Positions 3,230-55,068 of a DNA stretch of 64,000 nucleotides are shown here, in pieces; position 1 is the stretch's first letter, and the number at the start of each line of letters is the position of its first letter. Below the pieces are notes generated by a model, which was given only the letters and a program-made list of their open reading frames with translations, did not search any database and was not told the DNA's origin. Source of the DNA: Octopus sinensis (taxonomy: Eukaryota); the NCBI RefSeq assembly GCF_006345805.1, contig NC_043002.1:65162001-65226000 (forward strand). Direction: 5' to 3'. Both the position numbers and the translations under genes were made by a program.

Positions 3230-3236
3230 AATGTAC

Positions 3237-3356
3237 ATAAAGTTAGGGTACTTGGGTATGACTCTAGGCTTCGTAAGAGAGTTTATAAGATAGTCCAAGA
3301 AGTTCAGAGGGCTAATTTATGCATATATATATATATATATATTATATAATATATAT

Positions 3357-3401
<45 letters not shown>

Positions 3402-3715
3402 ATATATATATGTATATATATATATATATATAATATATATATAACACATAATATATATATGTATATATAATATATATATTATATATATATATATATACAC
3501 ATACATATATATGTATGTATATATATATATATATATTATATATATATATATAACACATTCATATATATATATATATATATATATATAGATATATATGTAT
3601 GTATATATGGTGTGTGTGTGTATTATATATGCATTAATTAACCCTATGAACTTCTTGGGTATCTTATAAACTTTCTGAGGTAGTCTAGAGGTATACCCAA
3701 GTACCCTAAATTTAT
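3237..3715. repeat. Imperfect ~90-bp inverted repeat arms flanking a (TA)n-rich tract
   Basis: 3237-3328 (ATAAAGTTAGGGTACTTGGGTAT...TGCATATA) is the near reverse complement of 3626-3715. Confidence 0.8.
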
Positions 3716-4164
3716 CTAAATATCACTAAAGTACACTGAAAAGATGGAAATAACATGTGGGGTACTGTGGTCTCTTGGCAGAAACAGGTGTAAGAAACCG
3801 CTCTTCTTTCTCTATTCTAGAAATTTCTAGTAATTTACACATGTATATATATATTATCAGAACTGTTTTAAATAAATAAATATACATAATATAGTGTCTA
3901 ATAGCTCATGAATACTACCTCTGGACTCCCTCCATTTTCTTCTTCCGATATAAATCAAAGGTAAAATCACTTATCACCCTCGCCTAGTAATGTAACTGTC
4001 ACGCAATAACCAACACTTGTGTGTTAAGTGGGTATTCTACCAGCAGTATATTGGATACATAATATCCCTTAGTTGGTTGGATTCACAACCTCTAACTCAC
4101 TTTGAATAATTTATATTATGTATGTATGTATGTATATATATAATATATATATATTATATATATA

Positions 4165-4202
<38 letters not shown>

Positions 4203-4206
<4 letters not shown>

Positions 4207-5034
4207 ATAAAAGGCTGACGAAAGAAATGTCGAATTGTATTTGGCTCATCTAGAAACGTACGTTCTCAAATAATCTTTGCACTTGTGATTTTTAATGTTT
4301 TTACCCCCATACCTTCGTGGGTATTTTGAGTAAACACTATCTGAGAGAAATTTTCTTTAAGTATTAGAAATGGCTAAAAAATCTTTTTTTTGGCTGCTAT
4401 TTCTAATGAGTTCAGTATGTGGCAAAGTAATTTATTTTACTAAGCCCTTTTATACAATGTAATATTTTGAATTCGCCTTAAATGGTCCCTTTACATACTG
4501 AATACTTGGTGAAATTGATTAATAACTAATTAATTTTACCCTCAATTGTTGAAATTATAATTCATTTCTCTCTGTTTAATGCCTCGGTTTTCACCGATAA
4601 AATATGGTGTTTACTAGTCTGACCCACGTGGGTGGAAGGGGGGAGCAGGAATTCTTCGCTTGCATATTTTGAATTTGTTGGCACTGTTAGTTTGAACGGA
4701 TCTTCTGAGTTGAAAAGTCGCCAAAAGGGTATGCTCCTACTTTCAGTGTTTCCAAATCCGAATTAAGAAATTTTGGGCTGACGAAAGAAATGTCGAATTG
4801 TATTTGGCTGATCTAGAAACGTACGTTCTCAAATAATCTTTGCACTTGTGATTTTTTTTTTTTAATGTTTTTACCCCCATACCTTCGTGGGTTATTTTGA
4901 GTAAACACTATCTGAGAGAAATTTTCTTTAAGTATTAGAAATGGCTAAAAAATCTTTTTTTTTGGCTGCTATTTCTAATGAGTTCAGTATGTGGCAAAGT
5001 AATTTATTTTACTAAGCCCTTTTATACAATGTAA
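4203..5034 (+). mobile_element. Non-coding element with ~250-bp direct repeats (period 563 bp), each starting with a hammerhead motif; retrozyme/Penelope-LTR-like
   Basis: 4213-4462 nearly identical to 4776-5034; embedded in (TA)n; no long ORF in the supplied track. Confidence 0.75.
4772..4833 (+). ncRNA. Type I hammerhead ribozyme motif, canonical core
   Basis: Stem I TTTGGG/CTCAAA; CTGACGA 4778-4784; stem II AGA..GTCGAAT/ATTTGGC..TCT with an A.A closing mismatch; GAAAC 4816-4820; palindromic stem III AACGTACGTT; cleavage triplet GTT. The partner at 4213-4270 lacks most of the 5' strand of stem I. Confidence 0.7.
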
Positions 5035-5094
5035 AATTATATATATATATATGTATATATACATATATATGTGTGTGTACATATATATATATTA

Positions 5095-5125
<31 letters not shown>

Positions 5126-5329
5126 ACACATATATATGTATATATATATATATAACTGAGTATATAATATACATTATATTGATTTCAAATTTTGTCACGG
5201 GGACAGCAATTTCAGGAGAAGGATAAGGGAATTATATTACCAGTGTTCAACTGAGACTTATTTATCGACGTCGAAAGGATGAAAGACGACCTCGGCGAAA
5301 TGTATGATCCAAAGTGTAACTACATGTGG

Positions 5330-5585: not shown

Positions 5586-6049
5586 TTGTTTAAGCTATCT
5601 TTTCCTGGAAGAAGGTTTATGTTCCTAAAACCTGTGTTAATTCTGTAATCCTTTAAATTGGAAGACAAGAAAGTTCATTTTAGGCACTTGATGCCTTTCT
5701 TTTTCCGTAAAGGGAAAAATGCCTCACAAGCAACTAAAGAAATATGCGCAGTTTACAGTGATGTTTCTTTATACGAAATAACTGTACAGAAGTGGTTTGC
5801 AATGTTCCGAACTGGAGATTGTAGCCTTATTGATAAAGAGCGATCAGGCAGACTATCAACTACAGATGATGACAAAATTAAGTCACTAATTGAAAATAAC
5901 CCTCATTGCACAACCCGAGAATTGGCAGAAAGGCCCAACCTATCAAAATCCGTCGGTCATGAGCACCTGCTTAAGCTTGGGTAATGGCAAATATTTATTG
6001 ACCTTTTTCTTTCCTTTAAAAATTGGCACGAACTTTCCGGACAACCCAA
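5586..6049 (+). mobile_element. Internally deleted mariner element: N-terminal HTH of transposase (ORF 5658-5984) joined to the right TIR
   Basis: MEDKKVHFRHLM.FFFRKGKNASQA...WFAMFRTGD.SL.D.ERSGR...TTRELA resembles the mariner/Mos1-type HTH; TIR-like GGCACGAACTTTCCGGACAACCCAA at 6025-6049 followed by TA; no catalytic domain. Confidence 0.88.
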
Positions 6050-10153: not shown

Positions 10154-10187
<34 letters not shown>

Positions 10188-10229
10188 TCGCGAGTCGGCT
10201 AAAAGTCCATAAGTCAGGGAAAGGATGCA

Positions 10230-10700
10230 CTCGTATATCTGTCAATAGATTGGGTATACTACCCGAAATGTACTCTAATATATAGCCATCACACACTGAT
10301 CTTACCAATCGGTTTCGCGCTAAGAATACAACGGCGTGTTATGTAACGATCGGATTATGTAATATAACGCTCATCAGAGTTAGCCGACATGGAAAGGAAT
10401 ATGGCGAGTGCTCTCTATTGTCGCAGGTAAAACGACGCATCTGGTTTGTGGTTGTTGTGAAAAAGATGGTGAAACGAAAATGGGCAGAGTATTAGGTCAG
10501 GAGTTACATGCCTTGGTTGGATTCGCTGTAAAGCCGGTAAAAATTATTTCGAAATGTTTCCTGCGTTATTAAGTCTGGTGCCCCTGTAGGGTTGGGGTAT
10601 GTGATATGTGTAATGGTGACATACGTTTAATATTATCCAGAGTATATATAACTATGATCCTTAGTCCGTTTTCTTTCTGTATTGGTAAAGGCCATAAGGA
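10230..10700 (-). pseudogene. Heavily decayed Penelope-like linker/GIY-YIG fragment
   Basis: Frameshifted minus-strand remnants ITY-P..LQG..RKHFEII, LCPF and RRFTCD resemble PLE motifs; alignment by eye only. Confidence 0.35.
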
Positions 10701-10847
10701 TTATGTTAGCCTTGCTGGGGCGTTCGTACATGAGTACATTGGTGTATGCTCTGGTCAAATTATTTGCTGGGTTCGAGGGTATCGGTGAAAGGCCGAGGTC
10801 GAGAACCTGTGGTTGCAGTCATGGTAGGCCGGAGGTACGATAGAATG

Positions 10848-11125
10848 TAGTTCCTTTCATGTGGACAAGGTTTAAGCACTTCACTCTTGCTACTCAGGTA
10901 AACATCCGGGTGTTGGGTACCTTTTAATACCGCTCACTTGTCATCCAGGCACAATTTGCATCTCCTACTGCTATTGAAGTGCGGTTTACACAACTCCAGG
11001 ATCTTCTACTTTATGTTGTACTGTGTGACGCTTTCTTTCAAATACCAAATGTGCTCAACCGGGGTTGTGGCGTTGCGTCTTGCTTGCATGAGACCATTGG
11101 AAGCCTTCTTGACACACAACCGAAT
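10848..11125 (-). pseudogene. Penelope-like element, GIY-YIG endonuclease C-terminal remnant
   Basis: NATTPVEHIWYLKESVTQYNIK*KILELCKPHFNSSRRCKLCLDDK*AVLK...LSSKSEVLKPCPHERNYIL matches the PLE pattern HIW.LK...I.W.IL..A.PY....K.C.LCL.EK...LN.RSE....C.H. Confidence 0.8.
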
Positions 11126-19414: not shown

Positions 19415-20530
19415 GCAACAGTAGCAACAACAGCAACAACATTGTGGCAGCGGTCTGTATGACTACAATAGATTAATGTTATACCAATACATTGATATTG
19501 TAAATACGGCGCCAGTCCCCCGCTGTTTTTGGCTTGGCTCAACCAGTAAAACGGTCTCCAAATATAACTGACCGTATAGCATTACCTCAATTATGAAAGA
19601 TTTTGTTAACATCGATTGGGAAGGGGTGGTAGCAAGAACAAAATAAAATAAACTAGATAAATATATCAAAGATATTAAAGGAGTGGGGGAGAACACAGCA
19701 AAGTAAAAACGGAAACATTTTCAATGTGTTTTTTTTTATCGTTTTCGCTTTGTATTATTTTTTTTTCTGTAGTTGTTATCGTTGCTTCGTTATTTTCCTC
19801 TTATTTTTGTTACTGCCTTTTGTTTTGCAATAGTTTTCATCGTATTTATTGAACTTTTTGCTCGGGTAATGAAATGTCAGTATTGTCGCATTATGTAAAA
19901 CAATATTTCAGTACGTATGTCGGTGTTTTACCTGCAATATACATTCCAAGCGTATGAAATATTGGCAGCCTCCAAAAACATTGCGTCTCGGTTAAGGGAG
20001 AAATTATCGCTACGTGATACAACAAGATGAAATAAATATGAATAACTTTTATTAATATAATAAAACCACGAACTTCTCCATAGATGAGCAGGGCTACCTA
20101 ATACGCCGTTTATTTAGTTGTATGTTTGTCATTTAGGTTTAATACAAGCTCATAAACTGAACTAATAAAATAGAATTATTCATCACCATTATTTCTACGA
20201 CAAGGTTTGTTTAGGGGCGGAATCAATTAGTATATTTGCTGGGTTCAAATCCGACCAAATCATCTTGAATTTTATTCGTTCCCATGACAGGCATGTGTGT
20301 GTTGCAAAGAAATTCGCTTTGCAACCACGCAGCTTGGGGTACAGTGAGCAGTGGTATATATATAACGATCTGAATTCTTAACTGGGGCAGAATACGCTAA
20401 GTTATGTTTATTAGAATCCACACAATGTCTGATATATGTGTACATGTGATTCTATATATTGTATATCTATATACGTATATGCATATAGATATATACATAT
20501 ATATGTGTATGTATGTATATATATATACAC

Positions 20531-20564
<34 letters not shown>

Positions 20565-20613
20565 ATATGCATTTATGTATGAATGTATGTATGTATGTAT
20601 ATATGTATGTGAA

Positions 20614-20951
20614 GGCACGTGGCTCAGTGGTTAGAGCGTCGAGTTTACGATCGTGAGGTTGTGAGCTCGAATCCCGGACCGGGCTGCGTGTTGTGTTCTT
20701 GAGCAAGACGCTTTATTTCACGTTGCTCCAGTTCACTCAGCTGTAGAAATGAGTTGCGACGTCACAGGTGCCAAGCTGTATCGGCCCTTACCTTTCCCTT
20801 GGATAACACTGGTGACGTGGAGAGGGGAGGCCGATATGCATGGGCGACTGCTGGTCTTCCATAAAAAAATCTTGCCCAGACTTGTGCCTCAGAGGGTAAC
20901 TCTCTAGTTGCAAGCCCATGGTCAGTGTCTGACCGAAAGGGGTCACAATAA
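20614..20951 (+). mobile_element. tRNA-derived SINE family C
   Basis: A box TGGCTCAGTGG 20620-20630, B-box-like GCTCGAATCCC 20665-20675, central GTGTTCTTGAGCAAGAC domain; flanked by (ATGT)n. Confidence 0.8.
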
Positions 20952-21510
20952 TGTATGTTTGTATGTATGTATGCATGTATTACAGACAAGAAAGTGAGTT
21001 TTGAACACAATACAACTGCCAAAAGCAGTCAAGAAAGATTGGGTATTTACAGTTCAAAAGTTCCAAGAGTCCAAAAAGCTTTTGAGCGTGAATTGTATTT
21101 GATTTTAGTGGATAAAGTGCTATACAGCACTGAGCTTATTTTTCAGCACAATCAGCCATAACGCCAGGAGCACAATAAATTTTGTATGAGTTTACGTTCG
21201 CCTAAAAGGAAGTTTCACTCATTGATCCTTCACTCATTGTAGGTCACATGGTAAATAACGCACTGCAGAAACCTCAGCAGGTCCCACTACTTACTGCATT
21301 AAGGTATTCTGTTATTTGCCGGTGGTGATACTGTATTTCAGAGTTGCAAATATTTTTCTGACACCAGTAGTTGTCGATAAGTGAGGTTCTTAATTTTATC
21401 TATCTACTGTGCAAAGTAAAAGCAAACTTTTTCAGTCATTTACATCTTACTTGTATTTATGTGTGTGTTTGTGTTGGTCCGTGTGTGTGTATTTGTGAGG
21501 GGTGCGCGCT

Positions 21511-24572: not shown

Positions 24573-24717
24573 ATATGATAATGTAAAAATTATCAAATTT
24601 TAAACTTTTGTAAGATTTAAAAATTATTTCTGGAATGAGTAAACCTCAACATCAAATTCATCGTGAAAATGCAAGTCAATATATCAAGTTTGAAAAATTT
24701 CACTTAAATTAAAATCC

Positions 24718-24773
<56 letters not shown>

Positions 24774-25731
24774 TATATTTCACATTCTGTGTCACACACG
24801 CACACACACTTTCTCTCTCTTTTAGGTTATCTCTTTCATTTCTTGATGTATTTAAAAAAAGAGAAAGATAGATAAGGAGAGAGATGGTGTGTCTCTGTGT
24901 GGAGGAACGAGAGAAAAACATGTGTGTGTATATATGTGCGTGTGTGCGTGTGTGTATGTGTGTGTTTCAGTGTGTATAATATCCGGATGGATAGAGTAGT
25001 AGCTCTCAATTTTGTTGTATGTTATGGCTAACCTCATTAATTAGTACTTAACGTCTATGCCTACAAAGAGTTGTCAATCACACAGTAAATCCTTGTATGG
25101 ATAATTCCGTGTTCGCTTAACTAGATGTTAATATTATATGGAATGTATATTTGCAATACATATAAACATAGAGAATATGGAGACTGGTACATCCCCAAAA
25201 TTTATTTCCTTTCATTTTACAAAGCATACAGGATGTTTTTATGGTTATGACAACCTACAGGTGTTTCTACTACATAGATTATGAGGAGTTGTACATGCAA
25301 CCGAGCAAATATGTTCTGTGCAGTTTCGTTGAAGGTCTTTCGAGGGGTAGTTAATAAGCTTACTTCCAAGCATAGTTCTTTCAGTAGAAACATATGTAGG
25401 TCGTCGTAACCATAAAAATATGCTGTATTCTGAGGATGTACCCATCGCCAATTTCTCTATCGTTATAATTATGGATTATGTATATAATATATACATATAA
25501 AATTAAATAACAATGGTAGAAATTGATATTAATTAAATAAAACCAGTGGCTTAGTATATTTAAAAAACCCGAAGATCAAAAATTGTATTACATACATTCC
25601 TCTTAATTTTGTATGTATGTATATATATGTATATCTTTCCTTTCCGAGCGTCCAATAACACTATACTTGTTCCACGTCCTCGTGTTGTTCTTTCTCTTTG
25701 TGTTTTCATGTTTGGATTAACTTTATATATG

Positions 25732-46264: not shown

Positions 46265-47930
46265 AATTTAATGTCAAGACCAAAACCTTTGCGCGATGGT
46301 GAAGGGGCAAGACAATTGATACGATCGTTCCCAGTTTTTGTTTGAGGATTTATGTTATCGATCCCAGATGGTTGAAAGGCAAGATTGGTCATGGCAGGAT
46401 CTGAAGTCAGAATGCAATGTGATAGTGGAAAACATTTTCCGACGCTCTAATAATTATGGCCACTGGCTGCCTTGAGAGCATTGAAGTATAATATTTTATC
46501 ATTTTGAAACAAAGCCAGCAACTTTGAAGAGAAGAGAAGCCGTTTGCCTCAACCCCTATGTTCAAATTGTACTTATATTTTTAGACATTGAAAGAATGGA
46601 ACGTAAAATTGATCTCTGCGGAATTTGAACTCAGAACGTAAAGAACGGAAAGAAATGCCGCTAAGAACTTTATGCGGTAACAATTCTGCCAGCTCTCCGC
46701 ATTAGCATTGAAGTATAATACCAGAAGTTACAAGCTGTTTAAGTAACATGAATTTATTAACAATTAAAAACACGTGTTGTGTCTCGGATAATCTTAGTTT
46801 TAGACAGAAGTTGCATATTTCGTCATATATTCCAATTGTTAGAATTAATTATCAATTAATTAGGGGAAAAATTCAATCAAAGCTAGACAATATCTTATTT
46901 CAGCTCACCGCTTTCTTCTCGCCACCCCACCTTCAGTCACCCTAAAACAAACTGTCTGCTGGTGTAACATATAAATTTTATGAACTATGAGAACAAGTGT
47001 TAATGTTTTGGTTAATCTCTCTTTCAGAAATAATTTGCATATTTCGTCGCCTCTGTTTGGCAAATATACCAACTGGACGACAGAAGTCATTAATTCATTT
47101 CGAAAATAGTATCGGAAATAGTTATTTCTTTTAAAAAAAGCTCGATGAATTTAATTGACCGAGATTCTATTAATATTCTTTATGCTATAGGCACTGGGCC
47201 TGATATTCATGTTCGTGTGGGATACACGATTATATCGACCCCAATACTTAGAAGGTACTTGTATACCGACCCTGAAAGTATGTAAGGCAAAGTCGACTTC
47301 GGTGATATTTGAAATCAGAACGCAACGCCAGAAGAGATTCCACAAAGACTTGTATCCGACTTCGTAACGATTCAACCATTTCGTCGCTTTCGTAATTCTA
47401 ACAATTTTGTGAAGAGATGACTATTTTTTTCTAAAAATCTTAAGTCGACGAAACAAAATCAAGGATGAACATTCATATTCAAGGAGAAATCTTGAAAGCA
47501 AATACGCCAGGGTCACGATTAATTACAGTTGGAATGAGGTAATGCCGGGAGAAGACGTCAAGTCGTATATTTTAGCAGTCACAGCAACATATTGGTATTA
47601 TTAAACCGCATTAAGGCGGCGAGCTGGTAGAATCGTTAGCGCGCTAGACGAAATGCTTAGCGGCATTTCGCCCGTTGCTACGTTCTGAGTTCAAATTCCG
47701 CAAAGGTCGACTTTGTCTTTCATCATTTCGGGGTGAATAAATTAGATACCAGTTGTAGAAAATGCTTAGCGGTATTTCGCCCATCGCTAAGTTCTGACAT
47801 CCGCCGAGATCAACTTTGCCTTTCATCCTTTCGGTGTCGATAAATTAAGTGCCAGTTGAACACTGGGATCGATGTAATCGACTTATCTCCTCCCACCAAA
47901 CAGCTGCCCTTTTGGCAAAACTTGAAGCCA
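46265..47930. mobile_element. Cluster of diverged family A SINEs (46265-46475 -, 46500-46705 -, 47180-47390 -, 47615-47930 +)
   Basis: Family A motifs recognisable in each segment. Confidence 0.7.
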
Positions 47931-52507: not shown

Positions 52508-52577
52508 AACACAACGTTTCGGCTGATACCCCCACCACCACCACGACCGCCAACACCACCAGCCTTCATCAGGTGTT
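52508..52577 (-). ncRNA. Minimal Penelope-type type I hammerhead motif, canonical core
   Basis: Minus strand: AACAC-CTGATGA-A-GGCTG-[GGT-rich loop]-CAGCC-GAAAC-GTT-GTGTT; lies within a short element ~52410-52605. Confidence 0.75.
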
Positions 52578-53994: not shown

Positions 53995-55068
53995 TTAGGT
54001 TGGCAGCTAAGTTCCCGCTGTTTTTTTTAATTTAAATTTTTTTAAATGTTTAATACAAAATAACAACTAATTAATCAATAATGTATTCACTCTTATTGTT
54101 TACAATTTCTTCCCAATATTCCACAAGATTTGCAATACCTCGTTGGCAGAATCACCCGATTTCGACTCGAAAAATTGATCCAACCAAGCTCTCTCAATTG
54201 TGCAGCAATATTGAACGAAACTCCGCAGACAGCATTTGAAAGAGATCGAAAGAGGTTGAAATCCGTTGGTTCCAAATCAGGAGAGTACGGCGGGTGTGGC
54301 AGCACTTCCGATTCATGCGTTTGAATGACTTCCTTAGTTATAATGACGATATGAAGGCGGACGTTGCCGTGCAGCAGAAGAACTCCATGATGCCGATTAG
54401 GTATTTTCTCTTGAATAGCCGTGTTGAGTCGTTCCATCAGTTCAACATAGTGTTCTTGCTTGAATCCATGAGTTGAGCGGTGACGAGCAAGCAAACCAGC
54501 GGAGATTGTGACTCGTTGATTTTTGTTGTTATCACTTAAAGCACGCGGAACCCATGCTCCATACTTCTGAATATTTTCCATTGAGTGAAGACGCTTCGCT
54601 ATAGCAGTGTGGGAGCATTCCATTTTCTCTGCCAGTTCCCTTCACGTTTGACGAGAATTTTCGTGCAAAAGTTGGTTTAATCGCTCTTTATTTAACTCAT
54701 TTGGACGGCCAAAATGAGGTGCGTCTTTGAGGTCAAAATTTCTATTTTTGAACTTGACATACCAATTACGAGCGCTTCTTTCAGCTATGGCACCCTCTCC
54801 ATACAGAGCACAAATGTCGAGGGTAGTTTTCGCCGCCTTGGAACTTTGATTAAAAGCAAAAAGGAGGTGTCAAAAATGCTCGTTTTTCTTAACTTGATTT
54901 TCTATTTTGATGATCTGAAAATAAACTAAAATTAACTAGAAAAAATCAAAATAGATTCCAAAATGATTCACAAATAGAATTCTCGAAAAAAAAAATAGAT
55001 TCCAAAATCTAAAAGCGCAATAAATTCCAAAATCCATAAAAAAGGTGGGAACTTAGTTGCCAACTCAA
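53995..55068 (-). mobile_element. Decayed, internally deleted mariner transposon with both TIRs and TA target duplication
   Basis: TIRs TTAGGTTGGCAGCTAAGTTCCCGC / GTGGGAACTTAGTTGCCAACTCAA, flanked by TA. WVPRAL and HPPYSPDLEPTDF motifs; first catalytic Asp region deleted; HDN mutated to HGN; stop codons and frameshifts. Confidence 0.93.

Follow-up and report, generated by a model that had tools for sequence, protein, structure and literature searches.

A non-coding, hammerhead-bearing insert in Octopus sinensis DNA, probably written by Penelope-like machinery

Between two TA tracts of the Octopus sinensis genome lies a non-coding insert of ca. 830 nt in which a segment bearing a hammerhead motif is directly repeated. 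This arrangement raises the questions of what kind of element the insert represents, which machinery wrote it, and whether the template was a circular or a linear RNA. The insert was examined within the whole stretch of DNA analysed here (64,000 nt), hereafter called the window, which consists of AT-rich DNA with many microsatellites and transposon fragments. Some repeats of the window may resemble octopus SINEs. An N-terminal fragment of a mariner transposase was found at 5691-5940 on the plus strand (Pfam HTH_48, E 2.9e-12), and a 182-codon open frame at 54093-54641 on the minus strand appeared mariner catalytic-like by eye, with no Pfam family at E<=0.001. Two inverted arms of 62 nt (3231-3292 and 3660-3721, 84% complementary) surround a TA/CA tract and possibly represent a miniature inverted-repeat element.

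Layout of the insert and its repeats

The insert occupies positions 4203-5034 (832 nt) and is bordered by (TA)n microsatellites at 4110-4202 on the left and, as judged by sequence inspection, at 5035-5156 on the right. It contains two direct repeats on the plus strand, 4213-4462 (250 nt) and 4776-5034 (259 nt), which over 250 aligned positions differ by 1 mismatch and 3 indels (7, 1, and 1 nt); the initial annotation had described direct repeats of ca. 250 bp opening with a hammerhead core, and this description was correct. The first repeat is pLTR-like and corresponds to a 5'-truncated copy of the unit, and a single-copy spacer (4463-4775) separates it from the second. The direct part of the insert measures 822 nt, which equals 1.46 units of 563 nt and agrees with the earlier estimate of a 1.45-mer.

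The 12 nt at the left end (4203-4214) are an inverted copy of the 3' end of the element, being the exact reverse complement of 5018-5029 and also of 4446-4457. The probability of such a match by chance, calculated from base composition, was ca. 8e-6 for the last 40 nt and 3e-4 for the whole insert. A short inverted repeat at the ends had been noted earlier, without being used; it held on inspection, and in our analysis it is the feature that points to Penelope-type machinery. The inverted stub stops at the equivalent of 5029 and the direct part at 5034, so that the two ends lie 5 nt apart. At the join between the stub and the direct part, which falls within a short shared GG(G)CT stretch, both donors read GGGCT and the join has one G fewer. 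The 16 nt closing the left TA flank recur at 5038-5053 and form a possible, weak candidate for a target duplication inside the microsatellite, which is indistinguishable from chance because 41 of the 198 TA runs in the window end in the same way. For non-LTR retrozymes, target duplications of >4 bp are described when these are present.

No second copy of the insert was found within the 64-kb window, nor were relatives found in viral, metagenome, and prokaryote collections, a result of little weight since animal DNA is not expected there. Because no second copy was seen in either place, the status of the insert as a member of a family is presumed. The hammerhead pattern itself gave 4 metagenome and 10 viral matches, sharing with the insert only the searched motif, and 0 in genome contigs. 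One identical hammerhead-like pattern match was present in all three of the viral contigs L007, L009, and L010 and is unrelated to the insert. Among the sequencing runs listed, 20 of 24 contained part of the words of the stretch. Four contained half or more (3 studies, 2 organism labels), one of which may be the source; the remaining 16, with shares of 0.24-0.49, were left out of account. No RNA run was listed among the 20, which is uninformative on expression.

It is conceivable that the second repeat was made by a local DNA duplication after insertion, which would render the tandem uninformative on the RNA template. Such an event would suit the unstable microsatellites flanking the locus, the 7-nt indel that separates the repeats, and the lack of another copy in the window and in the three kinds of collection. 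However, the first repeat starts exactly at the inverted stub and stops at the position matching the end of the element, which is what a second, truncated round of reverse transcription would leave, and we regard a later duplication as very improbable.

Hammerhead motifs and predicted cleavage

The first hammerhead core starts at 4215 and its GUU triplet ends at 4264; for the second hammerhead, the corresponding positions are 4778 and 4827. The claim of two hammerheads 563 nt apart was thus borne out. Motif 1 (4215-4270, plus strand) comprises the core, stem II, and a palindromic stem III, with a predicted cut after 4264, and motif 2 (4765-4833, plus strand) has its core at 4778-4784 and G12 at 4816, with a predicted cut after 4827. 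The pattern CTGANGA-N25-45-GAAACGTACGTT was matched twice in the window and not once in 100 window shuffles, and the features of a type I hammerhead (CUGANGA, GAAA, the A15.1-U16.1 pair, and an NUH triplet) occur in order in both motifs. Motif 2 has a full core and a stem I in which 4772-4777 pairs with 4828-4833 (6 bp plus a 4-bp extension); its stem II is interrupted, and its 2-bp stem III lies within the palindrome AACGUACGUU. At the base of stem II, both motifs have A·A and not G10.1-C11.1 (A4785 faces A4815, and the first pair is A4786-U4814), a pair described as highly conserved in the hammerheads of Penelope-like elements (PLEs) (PMC4209133). The second motif, previously called complete, is therefore complete in its core and stem I but deviates at the base of stem II.

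With Rfam, no matches were obtained in the window at the gathering score, and the 26 matches obtained in 4100-5200 at E<=10 included no ribozyme family on either strand. The isolated motif 2 did not fold better than its shuffles (z -0.38). Published metazoan PLE hammerheads cleave poorly in vitro (PMC4209133), and eight of the nine Xenopus retrozymes tested gave no cleavage (bioRxiv 10.64898/2026.07.22.740005). If the insert cleaves, its A·A stem II base would widen the hammerhead descriptor.

Elsewhere in the window, a minimal hammerhead-like motif is located at 52572 and downstream on the minus strand. An extra A precedes its stem II, the closing pair is G-C, and the palindrome reads AACGUU, all of which fits the description of PLE hammerheads; three frames of the upstream 600 nt contained no Pfam family.

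Motif 1 is the same as motif 2 save that the 5' strand of stem I has been replaced by the inverted stub, leaving 2 bp, while stem I was predicted to have 6 bp in cross-copy and circular folds. When folding of the whole insert (832 nt) was predicted, the stem III palindromes of the two motifs paired with each other (p ~0.94), and 4265-4270 paired with 4772-4777 in the lowest-energy fold and weakly in the ensemble. The predicted cost in the whole insert was 0.9 kcal/mol for placing core 2 on site 1 and 6.6 kcal/mol for the monomeric motif 2, and that of forming core 1 was 12.8-13.7 kcal/mol; after a cut at 4264, or in a circle, the monomeric motif 2 would cost 4.3 kcal/mol. The initial annotation had proposed cleavage at both GUU sites; cleavage of each site by its own hammerhead does not agree with the 2-bp stem I and the high cost of core 1. 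Since hammerhead 1 keeps only these 2 bp, site 1 would need core 2, in a double-hammerhead fold, and the costs of the three arrangements thus allow a two-step release rather than two independent ribozymes. In a transcript of this copy, the palindromic stems III would pair, allowing core 2 to cut site 1, and hammerhead 2 could then refold and cut site 2. On these predicted energies, a two-step release of the 563-nt unit may be feasible.

Folding and coding capacity of the 563-nt unit

The cut-to-cut unit (4265-4827, plus strand) measures 563 nt, has a G+C content of 0.34, and was predicted to form a branched rod with 63% of its bases paired. All structure results given here are predictions from one sequence, without covariation. 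The linear unit gave -153.9 kcal/mol as compared to -118.4 ± 6.1 kcal/mol for 100 shuffles, and the circular fold gave -149.9 kcal/mol (z -6.15, 40 shuffles) and still left formation of the hammerhead possible at 4.3 kcal/mol. The excess energy of the unit (-35.5) was not exceeded by any of the window control stretches (50 of 60 run, 8 shuffles each; lowest -31.3). The z-score was not unique to the unit, being lower in 2 of the 50 on 8 shuffles each. Three control stretches (19975-21160, 24767-25330, and 47281-47844) folded far better than their shuffles (z -4 to -7, 8 shuffles); 19975-21160 overlaps an imperfect TA tract, and 24700-25400 is without a long inverted repeat.

Neither the repeat part (4265-4462) nor the spacer (4463-4777, 315 nt) folded unusually well when taken alone (z -2.0 and -0.15, respectively). 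When the two were joined, the predicted gain from their interaction was -39.0 kcal/mol, as compared to -7.0 ± 2.9 for spacer shuffles (n=132, lowest -16.9) and -8.1 ± 3.7 for window segments (141 of 141 segments, lowest -20.0). This gain arises from 12 short nested helices with 74 predicted pairs, 8 of them G-U, over 4463-4777. The minus strand gained -23.6 kcal/mol, which is also beyond its 126 shuffles (lowest -18.6), with 1 G-U in 60 pairs; the plus strand is thus favoured in both gain and G-U cross pairs (8/74 vs 1/60). Neither exact inverted matches of at least 8 nt between repeat and spacer nor their collinear inverted DNA homology was significant alone (24 of 200 and 29 of 300 shuffles as high, respectively), and therefore a recent inverted duplication does not explain the pairing. 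An old inverted duplication could still lie behind it. We infer that spacer and repeat may have evolved together as one plus-strand RNA. The unit would form a single branched rod, its two ends brought together in hammerhead stem I, and the stretch from hammerhead to hammerhead is predicted to act as one RNA, not as captured filler, which is new here. The pairing needs repeat and spacer in one molecule, in either order, and this also counts against the local duplication considered above.

The unit has little capacity to encode protein. The longest ATG ORF in the doubled unit was 30 aa on the plus strand and 24 aa on the minus strand, and Pfam detected 0 families in six frames of 4310-4779. Profile and tblastn searches of the insert with 150 PLE-like proteins gave only noise (best E 0.35, 33 weak-hit bins), a test that covers other PLE clades less well because all 150 proteins stem from a single query. 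No RT/GIY-YIG ORF was found between the repeats by the ORF, Pfam, profile, and tblastn searches of the insert. The 30-codon ATG frame, located at 4369-4461 on the plus strand in repeat 1, has a signal-peptide-like look; in repeat 2 a T-run indel shifts it. Its overlap with predicted hairpin arms led us to discount this frame. Separately, the end of a 47-codon frame in the spacer had resembled a PLE C-terminus by eye, and this candidate was rejected when the profile and tblastn searches with the 150 homologues returned only noise. Together with the strong predicted self-pairing and the pairing of spacer and repeat, these results support the description of the 563-nt unit as a retrozyme-like, non-coding hammerhead unit.

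These observations bear on the idea that the insert is a one-off product of Penelope machinery, in which the ordinary pLTRs of an autonomous element surround a deleted or captured 315-nt piece, the template was a linear uncleaved transcript, and neither a self-standing unit nor a circle existed. Insertion of an anole PLE in vitro did not need hammerhead cleavage, and reads terminating at the cut site were absent (PMC11167929). Furthermore, the repeat holds a 30-codon ATG frame, and pLTRs often include the start of an ORF (PMC3846280). On the other hand, this frame mostly overlaps predicted hairpin and stem arms, the spacer holds no PLE protein remnant by Pfam or by the 150-protein searches from one query, and its predicted pairing with the repeat exceeds that of all 273 controls, which would be unexpected of a random capture. 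We therefore consider a one-off product unlikely.

The size of the unit, its lack of an ORF, and the predicted branched rod with its circular z-score would also suit an endogenised viroid-like circular RNA that replicated from RNA to RNA and was captured by Penelope machinery, and RNA-RNA replication has been raised as an option for mussel retrozymes (PMC7229834). However, the minus strand of the insert has no hammerhead core, even with one mismatch, Rfam detects no ribozyme on either strand, and runs of several studies contain DNA of the stretch. Moreover, genomic retrozymes have the same predicted self-pairing (PMC7229834). Such an origin seems highly improbable.

Insertion machinery, template, and relation to known elements

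A 5'-truncated Penelope-like remnant is located 6 kb from the insert at ca. 10186-11070 on the minus strand, with a frame of the endonuclease end at 10826-11059 that contains two stops. At 10377 it carries a motif resembling a type I hammerhead, in which the base of stem II is G-C and which is followed 191 nt later by (TA)n; the remnant thus has the same hammerhead-then-(TA)n end as the insert. A full protein search with the remnant gave 468 matches at E<=0.001, one of them a protein of 723 aa that contains the motifs YRDD and GIVYIG, whereas a word-indexed search gave nothing. All of the 150 PLE-like homologues matched the remnant back, as expected since the remnant was the query, and one of nine remnant homologues matched in Pfam, below the cut-off. 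From their domain order and motifs, we take these homologues to be PLE proteins. The remnant shows that Penelope-like elements moved in this genome. A blastn comparison of the remnant with the insert at E<=1 gave no match; the remnant was not shown to be the partner of the insert, because they have no detectable common sequence. The 64-kb window yielded no autonomous partner whose pLTR matches that of the insert.

The anatomy of the insert, the absence of an ORF, and the Penelope-like remnant 6 kb away with its hammerhead-then-(TA)n end are direct observations. The insert is probably one copy of a non-autonomous hammerhead-bearing retroelement that was written by a Penelope-like RT/endonuclease in trans. 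Published PLE insertions consist of a full copy with a truncated one in front of it, which gives rise to pLTRs; the 5' end often bears a further truncated copy in inverted orientation, and insertion is biased towards microsatellites. The layout given is of two direct pLTRs of ca. 200 bp with an adjacent inverted shortened pLTR (bioRxiv 2021.04.23.441226; PMC3846280). PLE hammerheads are placed within pLTRs and have a palindromic stem III (PMC4209133). The anole PLE studied in vitro nicks AT-rich DNA, with both strands primed, and starts reverse transcription inside the RNA at two nearby sites (PMC11167929).

The insert may have arisen in a similar manner. A Penelope-like endonuclease would have nicked the TA tract, and reverse transcription would have begun inside the unit, ca. 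200 nt downstream of the cut site, and run 822 nt through a hammerhead junction to 52 nt past the cut site. On the other strand, a second copy of 12 nt would have begun 5 nt further inward, to be joined at the short GG(G)CT overlap. Position 5034, the final base that matches the unit and the presumed start of reverse transcription, corresponds to 4462 inside the unit and was predicted to be moderately unpaired there (0.68 vs a mean of 0.38).

Since the template ran without a break through the hammerhead junction, it would have been either a circle closed by ligation or a tandem transcript left uncleaved. The two are indistinguishable here because both give the same DNA, and we place the odds between them at about even. 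The more-than-unit length, which had been read as a sign of a circle, cannot serve as such, given that PLE partial tandems look alike and the anole PLE used uncleaved RNA in vitro. A single pass round one circle is made slightly less likely by the 7-nt indel that separates the repeats, although slippage or an assembly error could explain this indel. Circles have been proposed as PLE templates (PMC4209133), and circular RNA has been demonstrated for coral and mussel retrozymes (PMC7229834). A bolder reading is that the 563-nt unit lives as a viroid-like circular RNA, under selection and perhaps copied as RNA, that the locus records a Penelope enzyme rolling 1.46 times around the circle, and that the stub is the footprint of the enzyme; we give this a slim chance. 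In that case, the circle would be larger than those demonstrated to date for animal retrozymes and would use a hammerhead with a non-standard stem II base.

Among known systems, the insert resembles metazoan non-LTR retrozymes in having a non-coding unit with a type I hammerhead, a G+C content below 50%, and a predicted self-paired circle (PMC7229834), and mobilisation by PLEs has been proposed for these as it is here for the insert (PMC7229834; bioRxiv 10.64898/2026.07.22.740005). Its unit of 563 nt lies within the range of 51-972 bp given for retrozymes by Li, Clavereau and Pollet 2026 (bioRxiv 10.64898/2026.07.22.740005) but is larger than the retrozyme RNAs of 170-400 nt detected on Northern blots (PMC7229834). 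Unlike non-LTR retrozymes, the insert has 1.46 units, one complete hammerhead, and an A·A stem II base, and an inverted stub is not described for retrozymes in the literature covered. Li et al. require two complete units of a retrozyme (bioRxiv 10.64898/2026.07.22.740005); with 1.46 units, one complete motif, and an atypical stem II base, the insert was not filed as a formal member.

With PLE insertions, the insert shares the partial tandem, pLTRs of ca. 250 nt, a 5' inverted piece, a hammerhead with a palindromic stem III, and a microsatellite target (PMC3846280; bioRxiv 2021.04.23.441226; PMC4209133). It differs from them in that an RT/GIY-YIG ORF is lacking, the inverted piece is only 12 nt, the spacer is complementary to the pLTR, and a 5-nt offset takes the place of the 30-40-nt tail that is typical, if optional, in published PLEs. 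Non-autonomous Chlamys PLEs such as MRC1 are likewise non-coding, pLTR-forming, often head-to-tail, and mobilised in trans (Craig et al. 2021, bioRxiv 2021.04.23.441226), but they are algal, and their clade is described as without hammerhead motifs (bioRxiv 2021.04.23.441226). The pDo500 satellite of Dolichopoda crickets has a unit of ca. 500 bp with a hammerhead for which double-hammerhead action has been proposed, but it is a satellite making up ca. 5% of the genome, in contrast to a dispersed insertion of 1.46 units (PMC2837043).

Taken as a whole, the insert likely works, on its predicted structure, like a non-LTR retrozyme with the ends of a PLE insertion. Retrozymes of 51-972 bp as non-autonomous PLE derivatives have already been published (bioRxiv 10.64898/2026.07.22.740005), as have non-coding sequences captured between pLTRs; the kind of element is thus likely already known, with the insert as a further example. 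A literature search on octopus and cephalopod hammerheads and Penelope elements, of partial coverage, met no report of a cephalopod retrozyme. In the literature covered, the link between retrozymes and PLEs consists of shared hammerheads, co-occurrence, and pLTR similarity. By joining a predicted retrozyme-type folded unit to a Penelope-type stub, the insert would provide a direct structural link between both. It would also be a convenient, clean substrate for testing if a circle or an uncleaved tandem serves as the template and if the hammerhead has any role.
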